Assembly: GCA_000004985.1 (NCBI GenBank)
Contig: GG738921.1
Direction: 5' to 3' (one strand)
Source: Naegleria gruberi
Lineage: Eukaryota
DNA: 64,000 bases
Under the pieces are notes generated by a model that was not told where the DNA came from, did not search any database, and saw only the letters and a list, made by a program, of their open reading frames with translations. Positions 4,065 through 47,851 of the stretch are shown one piece after another. A program made the translations under genes and the position numbers. Position 1 is the first letter of the stretch. Every line of letters starts with the position of its first letter.

Positions 4065-6358
4065 NNNNNNNNNNNNNNNNNNNNNNNNNNNNNNNNNNNN
4101 NNNNNNNNNNNNNNNNNNNNNNNNNNNNNNNNNNNNNNNNNNNNNNNNNNNNNNNNNNNNNNNNNNNNNNNNNNNNNNNNNNNNNNNNNNNNNNNNNNNN
4201 NNNNNNNNNNNNNNNNNNNNNNNNNNNNNNNNNNNNNNNNNNNNNNNNNNNNNNNNNNNNNNNNNNNNNNNNNNNNNNNNNNNNNNNNNNNNNNNNNNNN
4301 NNNNNNNNNNNNNNNNNNNNNNNNNNNNNNNNNNNNNNNNNNNNNNNNNNNNNNNNNNNNNNNNNNNNNNNNNNNNNNNNNNNNNNNNNNNNNNNNNNNN
4401 NNNNNNNNNNNNNNNNNNNNNNNNNNNNNNNNNNNNNNNNNNNNNNNNNNNNNNNNNNNNNNNNNNNNNNNNNNNNNNNNNNNNNNNNNNNNNNNNNNNN
4501 NNNNNNNNNNNNNNNNNNNNNNNNNNNNNNNNNNNNNNNNNNNNNNNNNNNNNNNNNNNNNNNNNNNNNNNNNNNNNNNNNNNNNNNNNNNNNNNNNNNN
4601 NNNNNNNNNNNNNNNNNNNNNNNNNNNNNNNNNNNNNNNNNNNNNNNNNNNNNNNNNNNNNNNNNNNNNNNNNNNNNNNNNNNNNNNNNNNNNNNNNNNN
4701 NNNNNNNNNNNNNNNNNNNNNNNNNNNNNNNNNNNNNNNNNNNNNNNNNNNNNNNNNNNNNNNNNNNNNNNNNNNNNNNNNNNNNNNNNNNNNNNNNNNN
4801 NNNNNNNNNNNNNNNNNNNNNNNNNNNNNNNNNNNNNNNNNNNNNNNNNNNNNNNNNNNNNNNNNNNNNNNNNNNNNNNNNNNNNNNNNNNNNNNNNNNN
4901 NNNNNNNNNNNNNNNNNNNNNNNNNNNNNNNNNNNNNNNNNNNNNNNNNNNNNNNNNNNNNNNNNNNNNNNNNNNNNNNNNNNNNNNNNNNNNNNNNNNN
5001 NNNNNNNNNNNNNNNNNNNNNNNNNNNNNNNNNNNNNNNNNNNNNNNNNNNNNNNNNNNNNNNNNNNNNNNNNNNNNNNNNNNNNNNNNNNNNNNNNNNN
5101 NNNNNNNNNNNNNNNNNNNNNNNNNNNNNNNNNNNNNNNNNNNNNNNNNNNNNNNNNNNNNNNNNNNNNNNNNNNNNNNNNNNNNNNNNNNNNNNNNNNN
5201 NNNNNNNNNNNNNNNNNNNNNNNNNNNNNNNNNNNNNNNNNNNNNNNNNNNNNNNNNNNNNNNNNNNNNNNNNNNNNNNNNNNNNNNNNNNNNNNNNNNN
5301 NNNNNNNNNNNNNNNNNNNNNNNNNNNNNNNNNNNNNNNNNNNNNNNNNNNNNNNNNNNNNNNNNNNNNNNNNNNNNNNNNNNNNNNNNNNNNNNNNNNN
5401 NNNNNNNNNNNNNNNNNNNNNNNNNNNNNNNNNNNNNNNNNNNNNNNNNNNNNNNNNNNNNNNNNNNNNNNNNNNNNNNNNNNNNNNNNNNNNNNNNNNN
5501 NNNNNNNNNNNNNNNNNNNNNNNNNNNNNNNNNNNNNNNNNNNNNNNNNNNNNNNNNNNNNNNNNNNNNNNNNNNNNNNNNNNNNNNNNNNNNNNNNNNN
5601 NNNNNNNNNNNNNNNNNNNNNNNNNNNNNNNNNNNNNNNNNNNNNNNNNNNNNNNNNNNNNNNNNNNNNNNNNNNNNNNNNNNNNNNNNNNNNNNNNNNN
5701 NNNNNNNNNNNNNNNNNNNNNNNNNNNNNNNNNNNNNNNNNNNNNNNNNNNNNNNNNNNNNNNNNNNNNNNNNNNNNNNNNNNNNNNNNNNNNNNNNNNN
5801 NNNNNNNNNNNNNNNNNNNNNNNNNNNNNNNNNNNNNNNNNNNNNNNNNNNNNNNNNNNNNNNNNNNNNNNNNNNNNNNNNNNNNNNNNNNNNNNNNNNN
5901 NNNNNNNNNNNNNNNNNNNNNNNNNNNNNNNNNNNNNNNNNNNNNNNNNNNNNNNNNNNNNNNNNNNNNNNNNNNNNNNNNNNNNNNNNNNNNNNNNNNN
6001 NNNNNNNNNNNNNNNNNNNNNNNNNNNNNNNNNNNNNNNNNNNNNNNNNNNNNNNNNNNNNNNNNNNNNNNNNNNNNNNNNNNNNNNNNNNNNNNNNNNN
6101 NNNNNNNNNNNNNNNNNNNNNNNNNNNNNNNNNNNNNNNNNNNNNNNNNNNNNNNNNNNNNNNNNNNNNNNNNNNNNNNNNNNNNNNNNNNNNNNNNNNN
6201 NNNNNNNNNNNNNNNNNNNNNNNNNNNNNNNNNNNNNNNNNNNNNNNNNNNNNNNNNNNNNNNNNNNNNNNNNNNNNNNNNNNNNNNNNNNNNNNNNNNN
6301 NNNNNNNNNNNNNNNNNNNNNNNNNNNNNNNNNNNNNNNNNNNNNNNNNNNNNNNNNN
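4065..6358. other. Assembly gap (N run, ~2.3 kb)
   Basis: Uninterrupted n characters. Confidence 0.99.
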
Positions 6359-11709: not shown

Positions 11710-11831
11710 NNNNNNNNNNNNNNNNNNNNNNNNNNNNNNNNNNNNNNNNNNNNNNNNNNNNNNNNNNNNNNNNNNNNNNNNNNNNNNNNNNNNNNNNNNN
11801 NNNNNNNNNNNNNNNNNNNNNNNNNNNNNNN
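11710..11831. other. Assembly gap
   Basis: N run. Confidence 0.99.
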
Positions 11832-31223: not shown

Positions 31224-31273
31224 NNNNNNNNNNNNNNNNNNNNNNNNNNNNNNNNNNNNNNNNNNNNNNNNNN
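31224..31273. other. Assembly gap (further 50-nt gaps at 32706..32755 and 42926..42975)
   Basis: N runs. Confidence 0.99.
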
Positions 31274-32697: not shown

Positions 32698-32755
32698 ATC
32701 AAGTGNNNNNNNNNNNNNNNNNNNNNNNNNNNNNNNNNNNNNNNNNNNNNNNNNN

Positions 32756-39659: not shown

Positions 39660-40809
39660 CTAGAGAAAGAGGGTATTTTCTGAAACTCTGGCAACTTCAG
39701 CTTCACCCATTCTCAAAATACTATGAAGTGCATCTTGTGGTTCAATATAAATGTATAGTCCTAGTTTTCCATTTGAATGAGAAACAATACGGAAAGTTCC
39801 CCACATCCTTATTCCTCCCTTCTTTTCAAGTAAGAGAATGTACTCCATAATATTGGTAATTAATTTGTTTCTACAATGAGGATCTGGGTTAACATGTTCA
39901 TTCTTACTCTTAACTTCCACCTTGGAGTATTCCTTTTTCATGTCACTAATCTTTTGGTCACTCACTTGCTTGGCAATATCTGCAAACTTGGCATTGCTAT
40001 CGAATGGAATAAACTTGGTCAATAATACTTCAGCTCTCTTCATATCTGCAAAAACTGCATTATGCGCATCGGTTTCTTCACTTGAAGAGATGAGAGAAAA
40101 TTGTCTTGGGGTACAAATTTCAGCAAAACCAGATTGGAATGGGGAAATAAAGTTAAATTCCTTATCAACTCTATCTTGTTCATAACTCCAAATCTTGTAA
40201 CTGATATACAGTGTTCCCGATTTACAATCAGTTAATTCAAGGACCTCTGAATATTCCCTATCATGCTCAAGTTTATCACCATCAAGTAGAATTTCAGCTT
40301 GTCCAATAGGATCCTTTCAAAATGATGGATTGATGAATACATTTGAATTTAACACTTACATCCTTAGACAATAAATCCCAATCATAAACTTCAAACTTTA
40401 ACTTGATTCCCAAGCCAGTGTCAAGATACAATAAACTGTGGAATGTTTTATCCTCATTCCATTCGGGATTTAAGGTCTTTTTTTTGACGCTTGTTTTTTG
40501 TCTCCATTCCTTAGCTGTTTCCTTCATTATATCGTCAAATCTTTCATCATCAATGGCTGATTTTGCTTGTACAATCACATACTATTACAAGTCAATAAAC
40601 CAATACTAATTAACAATCACTTACAGGATCCTTTGGAAAGAGTCAATACATCAATCGAATAATAAATTCACTTACAGAAAATCCATTAAGATCAGCCTAT
40701 TACGATAATTAAGATGAATTGATAGCACCAATAAGAGTCAACCTACAGCCTCAAGATTTTTTGCGTGCTTGATTGTCACGGTTAATGTATCCATAGCTCT
40801 GAAAGGCAT
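39660..40809 (-). CDS. C2-domain protein B, tandem paralogue of A; 5 exons including a candidate 6-nt micro-exon (40625..40630) and a 1-nt frame problem in a T5 run
   Basis: The exons are 40809..40747 (MPFRAMDTLTVTIKHAKNLEA), 40697..40676 (ADLNGFF/S), 40630..40625 (GATCCT = DP), 40581..40360 (YVIVQAKS...NPEWNE...FEVYDWDLLSKD) and 40313..39660 (DPIGQAEILL...PDPHCRNK...). The introns are 49, 45, 43 and 46 nt. Confidence 0.6.
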
Positions 40810-41121
40810 CTTTAAATTATGTTTGATAAAAATCTAGTAGCAATTGTTGAATCAGTGAAAATGAACACTTGATTGTTTGTTATTTTTTCTGTATTGCTTT
40901 TTGCTTGCTTAATATTGTTATTTACTTTTCAAATCCCATAGTACCTTATTAAAAGTTGTTAGGGACATGAAATTACCATTTCGGGAACGGTTTTTATATA
41001 ATGCCGAAAACCTAAACACCTTAATAGAGTATAACAATAATTTAAAGGTGGGTACTAGCAAAATATCAACAGATTTTTAATCAAGAGTGACTTCACTAGT
41101 TTATTACAACAAATGTTCAAT

Positions 41122-41866
41122 TTAAGCTGTAGTAGTGGTGTTTGAAGCAACTACTGGAGTAACAACAGTTTCAGTCTTCTTGGCCTTCTTAGATCCCTTC
41201 TTGACCTTCTTAACCTTCTTAGCACCCTTCTTAGCAGTCTTTTTTACCTTCTTAGCACCCTTCTTTGTACCCTTCTTGACCTTCTTGGCACCTTTCTTAG
41301 TGGACTTCTTAACCTTCTTAGCCTTCTTAGATCCCTTCTTGGCACCCTTCTTGACCTTCTTAACCTTCTTAGCAGTCTTCTTTGCCTTCTTAGTACCCTT
41401 CTTGGCAGATCTAACAGTCTTCTTTGCCTTCTTAGCACCCTTCTTGGTGGACTTCTTTGGTGTTTTCTTGACAGATCTTACAGTAGTCTTGGTGGACTTC
41501 TTGGCAACCTTCTTAACACCAGTTTTCTTTGGAGTCTTCTTTACAGATCTAACAGCAGTCTTCTTTGGGGAAGCCTTCTTGGTTGCCCTCTTTGTTGTTC
41601 TCTTGACAGATCTAACGGCCTTTGGCTTCTTTGGAGCAGCAACTCTAGTGGAGTTTCTTTGACTAAGAGTCTTGATAACGGTAGGTGGCTTCTTAGCTCT
41701 TGTGGTTTTAGTGGCTCTAACACCTCTAATTTTAGCCTTAGCCTCAGTCTTCCAATTGATAAGAATAAAAGCAACAATTAAAATTAGTACGTACAGCCAT
41801 AGTCATGCCGGCAACACAGGCCAACAAGGCAATCAAACACAATGTAAGGAAAAGCTTAGCACTCAT
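41122..41866 (-). CDS. Secreted poly-lysine/alanine repeat protein (signal peptide + ~200 aa of AKKGAKKVKK-type repeats), 2 exons
   Basis: Exon 1 is 41866..41795 (MSAKLFLTLCLIALLACVAGMTMA). A 46-nt GTACGT..GGAAG intron lies at 41749..41794. Exon 2 is 41748..41122 and is open to TAA. Lys is encoded almost exclusively by AAG, with GCT/GTT/ACT/GGT/AGA bias (a highly-expressed-gene codon pattern). The listed + strand ORF 41135..41662 is its antisense (FLAFLDPFL repeats). Confidence 0.55.
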
Positions 41867-42517
41867 GATTAATGTTGTTCGGTAATTTTTTTTGATGATG
41901 AAAACATACCTCAATCAAAACCGCTTTTTAAAAACTGAGGGACTGTAATCACATTACAGATGAAGTATGCACAACACACTAATACTGATACTCGCCTAAG
42001 GTTAGTGGATAACAATGGGTGGAAAAACAGGATCAGTGTTTGGTAGGTGAATGAAGTAACTTGAGTTTTGTTTTAACTTACGTTGTAATCTATGGAGAGA
42101 CTGTATGTGTAGAAACAGTTAGTAGTAAAATTGAGCAAATTGGGTAATGGAATGTTGTATCGGCGACAATGTGTTTAATTTTATTGAAATAATTGTGGAA
42201 TGTGGATTGTACATCAAAGAGAAAAGTCTTTGAAAATCATTACTGAACTTTGATAGATTCTTATATTCATAATTTTTTAATATTGACATTCACAAAAGAG
42301 AGATAAACAAAATAAAGATGAAATTCATATCTTTATTTGAAATGTTACTAAATAGTTAGTAGAGAGGTTATTAAACAAGCTTTATCTGTCAGTTTTCCTC
42401 CCAATTAATAGTTGTTTAGAGATATGAACAATTTCTCTCTTGTTAATCGAGGAAAATAAGTTTGCCCATAAAGAGCGGTGAGTTGAGCTTTGTTTATTTT
42501 CAAAAAGAAAAAAAAAC

Positions 42518-42925
42518 ATGTTCAAGATCTCATTCGTCGAGTTTTCAACACCTCAAACAATTAAATCAGCCTTATCTTGTGAGGTCAAGAATAAGAACAA
42601 CAATTCTCCAAAGAAACGAGGACGACCACCAAAGAAGAAACAACAGGAAAGAGATTCAAAAGTTGTCACATCCTCAGAATCAATGAAAGATGCTCAAAAG
42701 AATGATGTAAATCATCCTGCTGTGATCTTGACCGAATGTAAGAAGAGGAAATTGGAGAATGTTTGTGAGCAATACAGAACTCCTCCATTGGTGGTTTCTC
42801 CTCCTTCACTGCATGTTGAGGAGGATTCTAATACTCAAGCAACAACAACAACATTAGCAAGGAATAGAAAAATTATAAGAACCTCAATATCGCTTAAAGA
42901 AATATTGAATTATAATGGACAACAA
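42518..42925 (+). CDS. AT-hook protein family member 1 (3' end in gap)
   Basis: It opens MFKISFVEFS, carries the AT-hook PKKRGRPPKKK, and then has RKIIRTSISLKEILN before N's at 42926. Confidence 0.5.
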
Positions 42926-42978
42926 NNNNNNNNNNNNNNNNNNNNNNNNNNNNNNNNNNNNNNNNNNNNNNNNNNAAA

Positions 42979-43486
42979 GATGTACATTAACAAATTCTCT
43001 ATTGTTGACTTTACTCCTGCTCAGAATATTCAAACAAAAACTACTGATTTACCAAAGAAGAGAGGTAGACCACCTAAGAATTCACCACATGCAAACAAAT
43101 CAATGTTTATTAGGTCAACTGAGACAATGCCAATGAGGTATGAATTGACGAATAGAATGACAGACCAATTCAAGAAGGATAAACGAAGAAGAAGGGAAAA
43201 GAAAGCATGTAATAGTCCAAACACATCTAATTGCTCCACATCTAGTAGTACATCATCTTTGACTATTGTGCAAGAATTGAATAATTGTTTAGTTTCAGAC
43301 ACATTAGTTTCGTCTCTTCCAACAACGCATGCATCCACTCCTCAATCTAATATCACTACCACTAACGACAATACAACAACACATCTAGAATCCAATCTTA
43401 TCACCTCCAACAATAACAACACATCCAATTATAAACCTCCAAGAAAGATAAGATATTCGATATCCATCCAAGAATTATTAAATTGA
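42979..43486 (+). CDS. AT-hook protein family member 2
   Basis: The N-terminus is MYINKFSIVDFTP, the AT-hook is LPKKRGRPPKNSP, and the C-terminus is PPRKIRYSISIQELLN*. Confidence 0.55.
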
Positions 43487-44081: not shown

Positions 44082-45274
44082 TTACGGAATCATAAAGAAG
44101 AGATTGGACATTACCAAACGAGAAGTTAGAGCAATCATGGCCAAAGTTGAAGATCCATGCTTGAAAACAACCAATTGAGTAACATTAAATAAAACATTGA
44201 AAACTTCAAATAAAATTGCAACCCAATAAACTCCATCACAAATGTCACCCTTCAAAGAATTCATTCCAACAACACATTTCAATGAATATAACATGTAATT
44301 AGGTAGGTCAGAAGCAGATTTCACAATACTATTTGGATTCCAAGGAATTAATAAAAATGGAATGAAAAATAAAATTCCAAATAATAATTGAAATAATTCA
44401 ATCCATGCGACCATATAGAAAACATCTAATTTCTCCTTTTTTAGATAATGTTCAATGTAAACATTGGCAATGGCTTGGAAAAATGTGGAAATTAATAGAA
44501 CGAGAGCCCAAATCCATTCTGTTGAGCTAGTTCCAGACCTTCCTGAAAGAAATAAAGGCAAAACATTTAAAATTACTCCAATGATTACAATAAAAGTTCC
44601 TCCAAATTGTAGAATATTATATCTCACCGATAAGAATATCATGGAAACGAGCATATTATTGATGATAATGGTTTGATTCATTGCCACGTTTACACTACCT
44701 GAAACATTTGATGAGGCAATGACCAATATCAAGTTTGCTAAATTCGTTAAAAATCCCATAATTACAAACTATTCCAATAATTGATTAGAAACATTCCTCC
44801 CATTTGAAAACATACTCTATAAACAGGAAATTTTCTCATTTCCTTTGTAACACTCCTAGTTCCAAACATTTTAAACCAAGCAATTGGCCAATAAACAATA
44901 TTTGACATGGTTGGAATTAAAATCGATGACAGGAAATATCCATAATGTTTCATTTGTGTTGACAATCTAACAATCAGAACAAAATTAATAGATCTAGAGA
45001 AGGCCATCACCAAAACCACCAAACACAAGGCCCCAAACACAACATACTTGTTGGTGTGAAGGAAATTCCTCACAGCACCTAAATTCCTTCGGAATGTTGA
45101 AGTTGTGTGAATTTGCATCTCACAATTATTGACATTTCCTTGAACAGAATTCTGATAACCAGGATCCTGAACCTCAACATGAAGACCTTGTTGCAGTTGT
45201 GAATTATTGTCGTTATGTAGTGATGGAACAATCAAGGGCACATGTTCATCATCTTTTCGTGCCATTTTTTTCAC
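44082..45274 (-). CDS. CRT-like (chloroquine-resistance-transporter family, DMT superfamily) membrane transporter, 2 exons
   Basis: The exons are 45274..44816 and 44768..44082, with a 47-nt GTATGT..GGAATAG intron at 44769..44815. The protein has multiple TM segments, including NVYIEHYLKKEKLDVFYMVAWIELFQLLFGILFFIPFLLIPW. Confidence 0.65.
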
Positions 45275-47311: not shown

Positions 47312-47851
47312 ATGTATAGCAAATTCTCAATCGTTCAATTTACAACACTCAGCTATATTCAGCCATCACATCAGGACAGCAACTGCCTGTGTATGGATGT
47401 TTCTTCTTCAAACAATTCAGCTAAAAATCCACTCTCCATTGGTCATAATCATGTTGAACTGATGCCAAAGAAGAGAGGAAGACCTATTAAGAATGAACCA
47501 AAATCCAACACCCAAATGGTAATTACCTCAACAGAAAGTTTGTTATGTCGGTCAATGAGCAATCGTCAAACAAATGTTACAAAGAGACAACACAGAGACA
47601 GTACATGTTGGGAGAGAAGAGTGAAACCAAAACCTGCAACAGTTACATCTCCTTCATCATCAATGGATATGCATACATGTATTAGCAATACTCCTTCAAT
47701 GCTCAATAGCCATACATATAATTACTCACAACCAGCAACAAGTATTCATGTTGAAAGCGAGGAGTTGCCTGCTTCTCCACATGGAACTGTGCAAATCTCC
47801 AAGAAGAGAATAATAAGAAGTTCGATATCAATTAAGGAATTGCTTAATTAA
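47312..47851 (+). CDS. AT-hook protein family member 3
   Basis: The N-terminus is MYSKFSIVQFTT, the AT-hook is MPKKRGRPIKNEP, and the C-terminus is KKRIIRSSISIKELLN*. Confidence 0.55.
   Translation: MYSKFSIVQFTTLSYIQPSHQDSNCLCMDVSSSNNSAKNPLSIGHNHVELMPKKRGRPIKNEPKSNTQMVITSTESLLCRSMSNRQTNVTKRQHRDSTCWERRVKPKPATVTSPSSSMDMHTCISNTPSMLNSHTYNYSQPATSIHVESEELPASPHGTVQISKKRIIRSSISIKELLN

Follow-up and report, generated by a model that had tools for sequence, protein, structure and literature searches.

Organization of the lysine-rich gene

The stretch of Naegleria gruberi DNA analyzed here comprises 64,000 nucleotides (nt) of contig GG738921.1 (GenBank assembly GCA_000004985.1) and is referred to as the window. 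Its minus strand contains a predicted lysine-rich gene of two exons, located at positions 41866–41122. In-frame splicing joins the exons into 699 nt encoding 232 amino acids (aa), in which a hydrophobic leader is followed by a repetitive polycationic chain. The exon–intron–exon structure proposed for the minus strand in the initial annotation was correct to the base, with the TAA stop codon at 41122 and the splice in frame. The coordinates of the gene, of the segments of its product and of the surrounding features are given in Table 1.

The first ATG of the gene has an A at position −3. Two additional in-frame methionines, Met21 (41806) and Met23 (41800), are located at the end of the leader, 4 and 2 codons before the splice donor (41800–41808, minus strand), and an alternative transcription or translation start at either one could give rise to a leaderless, soluble form of the polycation. 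The AATAAA hexamer downstream of the stop codon is a candidate polyadenylation signal; we infer that this hexamer functions as such in Naegleria. Another ATG is present within GGTATGTTTTCA (41902–41913, minus strand), 41 nt upstream of the main ATG. Ten bases of this site, GTATGTTTTC, are identical to the donor GTATGTTTTCAA of the verified 47-nt intron at 44815. The site could represent either a 12-codon upstream open reading frame that ends 4 nt before the main ATG or the splice donor of an intron in the 5′ untranslated region.

Table 1 Features of the lysine-rich gene, its predicted product and its surroundings in the window.
Feature	Position	Strand	Description
Exon 1	41866–41795	−	72 nt, 24 codons; ATG 41866–41864; product MSAKLFLTLCLIALLACVAGMTMA
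Intron	41794–41749	−	46 nt, phase 0, GTACGT...TTCTTATCAATTGGAAG; full sequence GTACGTACTAATTTTAATTGTTGCTTTTATTCTTATCAATTGGAAG
Exon 2	41748–41122	−	627 nt: 208 codons, then TAA (41124–41122)
Predicted exon 1–exon 2 junction		−	GGCATGACTATGGCT joined to ACTGAGGCTAAG; 3′ side also given as ACTGAGGCTAAGGCT
AATAAA hexamer, candidate polyadenylation signal	41100–41105	−	16 nt past the stop codon
Mature residues 1–98	41455–41748	−	Predicted non-helical, Pro-containing, H1-tail-like
Mature residues 99–193	41170–41454	−	KK-x/KK-xx array, modeled as a single continuous α-helix
C-terminal tail VVTPVVASNTTTTA	41125–41169	−	Uncharged, Thr/Val-rich; preceded by KT-E; holds sequon N227-T-T
Asn56, Asn227 (precursor numbering)	41699–41701, 41186–41188	−	NST, NTT
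Antisense open frame	41135–41662	+	175 codons, no ATG; F/L-rich, FLAFLDPFLTFL...
C2-domain gene	Own ATG at 40809	−	Same strand as the lysine-rich gene, 313 nt downstream of its stop codon
AT-hook-like gene	Starts at 42518	+	Divergent; ~650 nt upstream of the ATG of the lysine-rich gene
N runs (assembly gaps), six	4065–6358; 11710–11831; 31224–31273; 31449; 32706–32755; 42926–42975

Evidence for protein coding on the minus strand

The lysine-rich locus is very probably a real protein-coding gene. Openness alone is weak evidence for this because four of the six frames contain at most 4 stops across exon 2; the minus-strand model is favored because seven lines of evidence independent of openness agree on it. 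Exon 2 lacks an ATG in any of its six frames, and therefore the Lys frame must splice to an upstream exon. All in-frame combinations of ATG, GT and AG were enumerated over the whole intergenic region upstream of exon 2 (n = 95), and the proposed GTACGT was the only donor among them that matched the local consensus GT[AT][ACT]GT. Alternative upstream first exons were rejected, having poor donors and needing introns of 440–650 nt.

Two other introns of the window were placed confidently, both on the minus strand and both joining long open segments. One (44815–44769, 47 nt, GTATGT...TTCTAATCAATTATTGGAATAG) belongs to a CRT-like transporter gene and the other (22795–22754, 42 nt, GTAAGT) to a 2132-codon gene. 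The 46-nt intron of the lysine-rich gene resembles these local introns in size and in a 3′ CT[A/T]ATCAATT element, and its end, TTCTTATCAATTGGAAG, is much like the TTCTAATCAATTATTGGAATAG end of the 47-nt intron. The element CTAATCAATT lies 13 nt before the AG in both the 47-nt intron and that of the lysine-rich gene, and may be a local branch-site motif.

The DNA repeats of exon 2 are degenerate. Tandem Repeats Finder (TRF) identified periods of 9, 12, 21, 33 and 42 nt with 65–72% matches and 13–20% indels, and yet a single phase is shared by all 31 AAGAAG hexamers and by 72 of the 76 AAG triplets over 513 nt. With repeats this old and an AAG phase this constant, it follows that no frameshifting indel was tolerated. 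The 208-codon open run is longer than that of every one of 1000 dinucleotide-preserving shuffles (mean 78, maximum 190). The GC content is exon-like in the leader (0.46–0.47, with 0.43 in exon 2) and intron-like in the intron (0.26), the flanks having 0.29–0.35. A signal-peptide-like N-terminus is encoded from only 2 of the 2615 ATGs in the window. The gene is further supported by the placement of AATAAA 16 nt after the stop codon and by the next gene downstream having an ATG of its own.

Codon usage

Lysine is encoded in the 232-aa product by 73 AAG and 6 AAA codons, and the other preferred codons are GCT/GCC, GTT, ACT, GGT, AGA and CCA. Both the near-exclusive use of AAG (73 of 79 lysines) and the biased GCT/GTT/ACT/GGT set noted in the initial annotation are thus present. 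AAG accounts for 0.92 of the Lys codons in this gene, compared with 0.36–0.46 in ordinary or lineage-specific genes of the window and 0.65–0.74 in the genes for myosin I, gamma-COP and an eIF3B-type factor. The codon shift of the lysine-rich gene away from the ordinary genes parallels that of the latter three with a Spearman rho of 0.46 (p 0.003), and with Lys excluded the rho is 0.43 (p 0.007). Window-wide, the A-ending codons ACA, GGA, GCA, TCA and TTA fall as the AAG share rises. The grading of AAG by kind of gene looks like translational selection in N. gruberi.

Iterated AAA lysine codons cause ribosome sliding and give lower output than AAG (PMC4363877). With its 35 KK pairs, the protein would therefore be pushed to AAG at any expression level through the avoidance of poly(A) tracts. 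Recent microsatellite expansion was rejected as a cause of the codon bias, the TRF repeats being only 65–72% matched. The earlier step from AAG bias to high expression stands in part: the codon shift follows the housekeeping direction even without Lys, but AAG is also expected from poly(A) avoidance. High expression of the gene is thus a reasonable but not compelling reading of its codons.

The N-terminal leader

The leader consists of an n-region, MSAK, a 15-aa h-region, LFLTLCLIALLACVA, with a mean Kyte–Doolittle value of 2.93, and a c-region, GMTMA. Small residues occupy positions −3/−1 relative to two possible cleavage sites, T22/A24 or V18/G20. A cleavable signal peptide is recognized by a positive n-region, an h-region of 7–15 residues, a polar c-region and small residues at −3/−1, and rule-based inspection finds all of these in the leader. 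Cleavage predicted after Ala24 falls exactly on the exon boundary. Residues 5–25 of the precursor form a 21-residue uncharged run.

Both Asn residues of the mature chain occur in N-x-S/T sequons, N56-S-T and N227-T-T, one near each chain end, which is a weak hint of lumenal exposure. A glycosylphosphatidylinositol anchor was rejected because a C-terminal hydrophobic stretch is absent; retention in the endoplasmic reticulum (ER) by KDEL and KKxx motifs was likewise rejected, as the protein ends in TTTA. A mitochondrial presequence was also rejected, since the strongly hydrophobic leader has a single Lys and lacks Arg. The architecture highlighted in the initial annotation, an ER-type hydrophobic leader followed by a polycation resembling a histone H1 tail, was found to be real and rare.

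The polycation chain

The composition of the 232-aa product is dominated by K (79), T (33), A (30) and V (24), followed by S (14), G (12), R (11) and P (8). The mature chain of 208 residues is 38% Lys; its 78 K, 11 R, 2 E and 0 D result in a net charge of +87 and an isoelectric point of 12.0, with a mass of 22.4 kDa. No globular part is seen in the AlphaFold2 model.

Residues 1–98 of the mature chain hold all of the Pro residues as well as the S/TPKK motifs (SPKK at precursor residue 84, TPKK at 96 and 120), and APKKPK is present. Four VRS[VA]KK quasi-repeats occur with a spacing of 21–24 aa, three of them within residues 1–98 and the fourth in the helical half. AlphaFold2 models residues 1–98 as coil with a predicted local distance difference test (pLDDT) score of about 60, and the charge in this region has no helical periodicity.

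Mature residues 99–193 contain 25 KK pairs separated by spacers of A, V, G, T or S, 11 of one residue and 14 of two, which corresponds to a mean of 3.56 residues per unit. Single-sequence AlphaFold2 modeling yields an uninterrupted helix over the entire region, with a pLDDT of about 95. Lysine periodicity was tested independently of this model. The K/R positions give a single sharp Fourier peak at 101.8° per residue, which was matched by none of 5000 residue shuffles and by 74 of 5000 shuffles of the order of the KK-plus-spacer units. On a helical wheel, 43 of the 51 K lie on one half, and the other half carries A11, V8, G8, T8 and S4. As a helix, the region would thus present a continuous Lys stripe opposite a stripe of small residues. 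Together with the codon shift, the Lys periodicity provides evidence for selection acting on the protein.

Search for related sequences

The exact 232-aa product and the product of the plus-strand open reading frame (ORF) antisense to exon 2 are both absent from a collection of 15 billion proteins that holds the N. gruberi proteome. The lysine-rich gene is thus uncalled in public protein sets. When the full protein was used in a word-indexed search, K-rich tails overwhelmed the result, which contained only Bradyrhizobium adenylate kinases; the same type of search gave no match at E ≤ 10 for the junction-spanning N-terminal 93 aa, and no match for the plus-strand ORF product. An exhaustive phmmer search of 1.84 billion representatives with exon 2 returned a single match, a KE-rich repeat protein, which was rejected on inspection as compositional. 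In these homolog searches, weak similarity between K-rich sequences may be masked by the composition correction.

The 3′ end of exon 1 had 0 matches in a metagenome scan. Pattern scans of contigs from metagenomes, viruses and prokaryotes each produced 600 matches, none of which was confirmed by tblastn. The Pfam scan at E ≤ 10 returned only sub-threshold chance matches to DUF3679 and Mitofilin, and the matches in NCBIfam and the PDB were chance or compositional ones only, those in the PDB being designed helical proteins. K-rich repeat paralogs, for which the initial annotation suggested a search, were found neither in the protein-set nor in the contig searches. A survey of the literature on Naegleria lysine-rich, cyst-wall and secretome proteins found nothing relevant to the gene. 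On the strength of these searches, which did not extend to the DNA of other Naegleria genomes, the lysine-rich gene is an orphan by sequence.

Genomic setting

The window is N. gruberi nuclear DNA. Two of its single-exon ORFs are the N. gruberi proteins EFC37172.1 and EFC37123.1 at 100% identity, both encoded on a 207-kb scaffold, and its GC content is 30%, with poly-Asn/Gln tracts and short introns. Besides the C2-domain and AT-hook-like genes that flank the lysine-rich gene, the neighbors are ordinary: a class I myosin, gamma-COP, an eIF3B-type factor, a calpain, a CRT-like transporter and a receptor-type kinase. The largest assembly gap, 2294 nt of N, lies inside the calpain-family gene (Peptidase_C2, E 1.6e-35) and accounts for a block of "0.8% GC" in the composition profile.

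Three paralogous AT-hook ORFs are located on the plus strand at 42518–42925, 42980–43486 and 47312–47851, the first two separated by a 50-nt assembly gap alone. They have a common start, M[FY]..[KS][IF]S[FI]V[EDQ]F, one AT-hook each, PKKRGRP[PI]K, and a conserved C-terminal IR.SIS[LI][KQ]E[IL]LN. The Pfam scan gave no match for any of the three, which appear to make up a small family of DNA-binding proteins specific to the lineage.

Proposed role and alternative explanations

The composite explanation put forward here, held with even confidence, is a two-exon gene for an ER-targeted, probably signal-peptide-cleaved, polyanion-binding polycation. The leader would be recognized co-translationally, would direct the chain to the ER and would be cleaved near Ala24, and the mature polycation would then enter the secretory or endolysosomal lumen or be secreted. 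There it would act purely electrostatically: disordered alone, it would neutralize or condense a polyanion and become helical once bound. The transition from coil to helix on the polyanion is proposed because an isolated helix with such a charge density should not be stable. In a bacterivorous amoeba the likeliest ligands would be bacterial envelopes or nucleic acids encountered in the phagosome or the medium, with an agglutinating or antimicrobial outcome. After these would come a cyst-wall or substrate component, either an acidic polysaccharide or an acidic matrix.

Several points weigh against this explanation. The expression of the gene, its splice junction and its protein are predictions from sequence, and neither the protein sets nor the metagenome, viral and prokaryotic contigs yielded orthologs or paralogs that would show conservation. 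The ligand of the polycation is a guess. The precursor has no acidic pro-region to neutralize +87 in transport, unlike silaffin precursors or defensins. The AlphaFold2 helix comes from one low-complexity sequence and is possibly over-confident. Signal-peptide cleavage was judged by rules, not by a trained predictor. Finally, the flanks of the 21-residue uncharged run differ in charge, +4 in the 15 residues that follow it versus +1 before it, and by the charge-difference rule these flanks favor an uncleaved anchor with the N-terminus outside and the C-terminus inside.

This last point leads to the foremost alternative, clearly the less probable of the two topologies, in which the leader is a type III N-terminal signal-anchor (N-out/C-in). 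The 21-residue apolar segment would stay uncleaved, spanning the membrane of the ER or of a later endomembrane compartment, the plasma membrane or the nuclear envelope, and the cytosolic or nucleoplasmic polycation would tether RNA, ribosomes, acidic lipids or chromatin. The S/TPKK motifs are sites of the cyclin-dependent kinase type, as known from H1, and would be sensible on the cytosolic or nuclear side, and a cytosolic +87 chain needs no translocation. The order of 4 residues, the uncharged run and the charge step is laid out as in p180 (PMC3362647) and also recalls AEG-1 (PMC5900566), so that the protein would be a minimal analog of metazoan p180/RRBP1 or AEG-1. Nonetheless, the n-region contains a Lys, and the strongly hydrophobic core extends over only 15 aa before G-M-T-M-A with its small −3/−1 residues, which is how a cleaved signal peptide typically looks. 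Neither a coiled-coil nor any other domain is present, the sequence resembles none of p180, kinectin and AEG-1, and the occurrence of both Asn residues in glycosylation sequons likewise argues for the lumen. It is unlikely that the protein is an independently evolved, minimal counterpart of metazoan p180/AEG-1 in a discoban amoeba, with an uncleaved leader and an abundant, membrane-tethered Lys-stripe helix that holds RNA or ribosomes against the endomembrane, or chromatin at the inner nuclear membrane.

A second alternative, considered very unlikely, is a leaderless H1-like soluble polycation that begins at Met21 or Met23 (MTMA/TEAK...) and binds DNA or RNA in the nucleus, nucleolus or mitochondrion. 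It would arise from a transcription start downstream of 41866 or from leaky scanning, could be a second isoform beside the ER form, and would be comparable to the kinetoplastid H1 that lacks a globular domain or to kinetoplast-associated proteins (KAPs). The two in-frame ATGs just ahead of the donor, the H1-tail-like composition and the S/TPKK motifs are consistent with such a product, and the KAPs of the related Euglenozoa are small, basic and H1-like (PMC2700280). However, the 60 nt upstream of Met21 have a coding-like GC content (0.47) and form an open frame whose ATG has an A at −3, and the signal peptide they specify is near-ideal and would be very rare by chance. In addition, KAP presequences are 9 residues long and start with M-L-R, unlike either the leader or MTMA, and the H1 globular domain was not found.

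It is highly improbable that the locus is no gene at all, being a degenerate low-complexity tract derived from (AAG)n that is open by chance beside a chance ATG and hydrophobic stretch. Four frames with so few stops across exon 2 indicate that openness is partly compositional, and a public gene model, a homolog or a transcript-derived protein was not found. The last of these is uninformative on expression because the verified neighboring proteins are also without Logan-derived copies. Against a chance tract, every indel in repeats as old as these preserves the phase, and AAG is used at 92% in a 30% GC genome with an AAA:AAG ratio of 2:1. Furthermore, the same frame stays open through the non-repetitive N- and C-terminal parts, the spacing of Lys follows an α-helical period, and the leader, donor, intron size, stop codon and AATAAA are all correctly placed. 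That the plus-strand F/L-rich ORF is instead the real gene, with the Lys frame as its mirror, is hardly credible despite its 175 open codons: it has no eukaryotic start because ATG is missing from all six frames across exon 2, no start exon or signals flank it, the F/L/P/D repeat it would encode is implausible as a protein and is present in no protein set searched, and the codon bias is coherent on the minus strand only. The plus-strand ORF is thus best described, as in the initial annotation, as the mirror artifact of the Lys frame, being ATG-less opposite a frame with a unique minus-strand donor. Its designation there as an annotated ORF could be traced to no accessible source.

Significance

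If expressed, the lysine-rich gene is one that the N. gruberi annotation missed; gene callers systematically lose low-complexity, intron-split small genes of this kind. Few ER-targeted proteins described so far would be as cationic as its product, which would carry +87 over 208 residues and has no acidic pro-region. The phase-locked Lys stripe leads to a simple hypothesis, that of helix formation induced by a polyanion. Depending on its topology, the protein would inform either on how a bacterivore handles bacterial surfaces or builds its matrix, or on the tethering of nucleic acids to membranes outside animals. Were the anchor topology true, the electrostatic anchoring of nucleic acids to membranes would be a recurrent eukaryotic solution, with a 232-residue protein as a model for its study. 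The locus also offers a clean teaching case of a real Lys-repeat gene versus its antisense mirror ORF.

Comparison with known systems

By its predicted features, the lysine-rich protein is an ER-targeted low-complexity polycation that is a member of no known family. It resembles the C-terminal tails of histone H1 in being rich in Lys, Ala, Thr and Pro, in its low complexity and in its S/TPKK motifs, and the DNA that encodes it is likewise of low complexity and prone to indels (PMC5400378). The C-terminal tails of H1 lack order in isolation and acquire structure upon binding DNA (PMC3287190, PMC2504289), and the lysine-rich protein is by analogy expected to be disordered on its own and to become helical with a polyanion. 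Membership of the H1 family fails because the globular domain is absent: the Linker_histone winged-helix domain (Pfam PF00538) was not found in the scan at E ≤ 10. The protein also differs from H1 in its ER-type leader, the only upstream start with a usable donor encoding a signal-peptide-like N-terminus, and in being far more regular, with a KK-x/KK-xx array in strict helical phase and no detectable homology.

The p180 proteins constitute a metazoan family. p180 has a 7-aa lumenal N-terminus, a single transmembrane domain, a lysine-rich region that binds RNA in vitro and basic tandem repeats (PMC3362647). The order of the parts in p180/RRBP1, kinectin and AEG-1/LYRIC, namely a short N-terminus, an apolar segment, a Lys-rich region and basic repeats, is the same as in the lysine-rich protein, and any binding of RNA or ribosomes would by analogy be non-specific and electrostatic. 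The lysine-rich protein is, however, ten-fold smaller than p180, lacks a coiled-coil (it ends 15 residues after the repeats) and shows no RRBP1 homology, and its repeats contain neither the acidic nor the Gln/Gly residues found in the p180 decapeptide.

KAP1–4 and KAP6 of trypanosomatids are H1-like, Lys/Ala-rich DNA condensers of ~20 kDa with an isoelectric point above 11 and a cleavable N-terminal targeting peptide (PMC2700280). The lysine-rich protein is likewise small, very basic and H1-like, with a predicted N-terminal targeting peptide, and comes from an organism of the same supergroup, Discoba. However, the KAP presequence is of the mitochondrial type, with 9 residues starting M-L-R, whereas the leader MSAKLFLTLCLIALLACVAGMTMA is a 24-residue, strongly hydrophobic sequence of the ER type. 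No similarity to CfKAP or TcKAP was found in the exon 2 phmmer search of the 1.84 billion representatives, in which the composition correction may hide K-rich similarity.

In the silaffin precursor Sil1p, residues 1–19 are a signal peptide and the C-terminal part is basic and repetitive (PMC4557024), which shows that a strongly basic repeat protein can be imported into the ER. Both Sil1p and the lysine-rich protein combine a signal peptide at the N-terminus, predicted in the latter, with a strongly basic, repetitive C-terminal part that is rich in Ser/Thr and Lys and passes, or would pass, through the ER. The lysine-rich protein differs in lacking an acidic pro-domain (0 Asp, 2 Glu), an RXL processing motif (0 of its 11 Arg are followed by x-Leu) and homology to Sil1p, and to our knowledge Naegleria makes no silica.

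Compared with antimicrobial peptides of the cecropin/magainin type and designed (KLAKKLA)n peptides, the predicted helix is longer (95 residues versus 20–40), its apolar face of A/V/G/T/S is only weakly hydrophobic, and processing sites are not evident. The likeness lies in a signal-peptide precursor and in Lys placed on one helical face with a periodicity of ~3.5 residues. A coil-to-helix transition on anionic surfaces is expected for the lysine-rich protein as for linear cationic amphipathic peptides.

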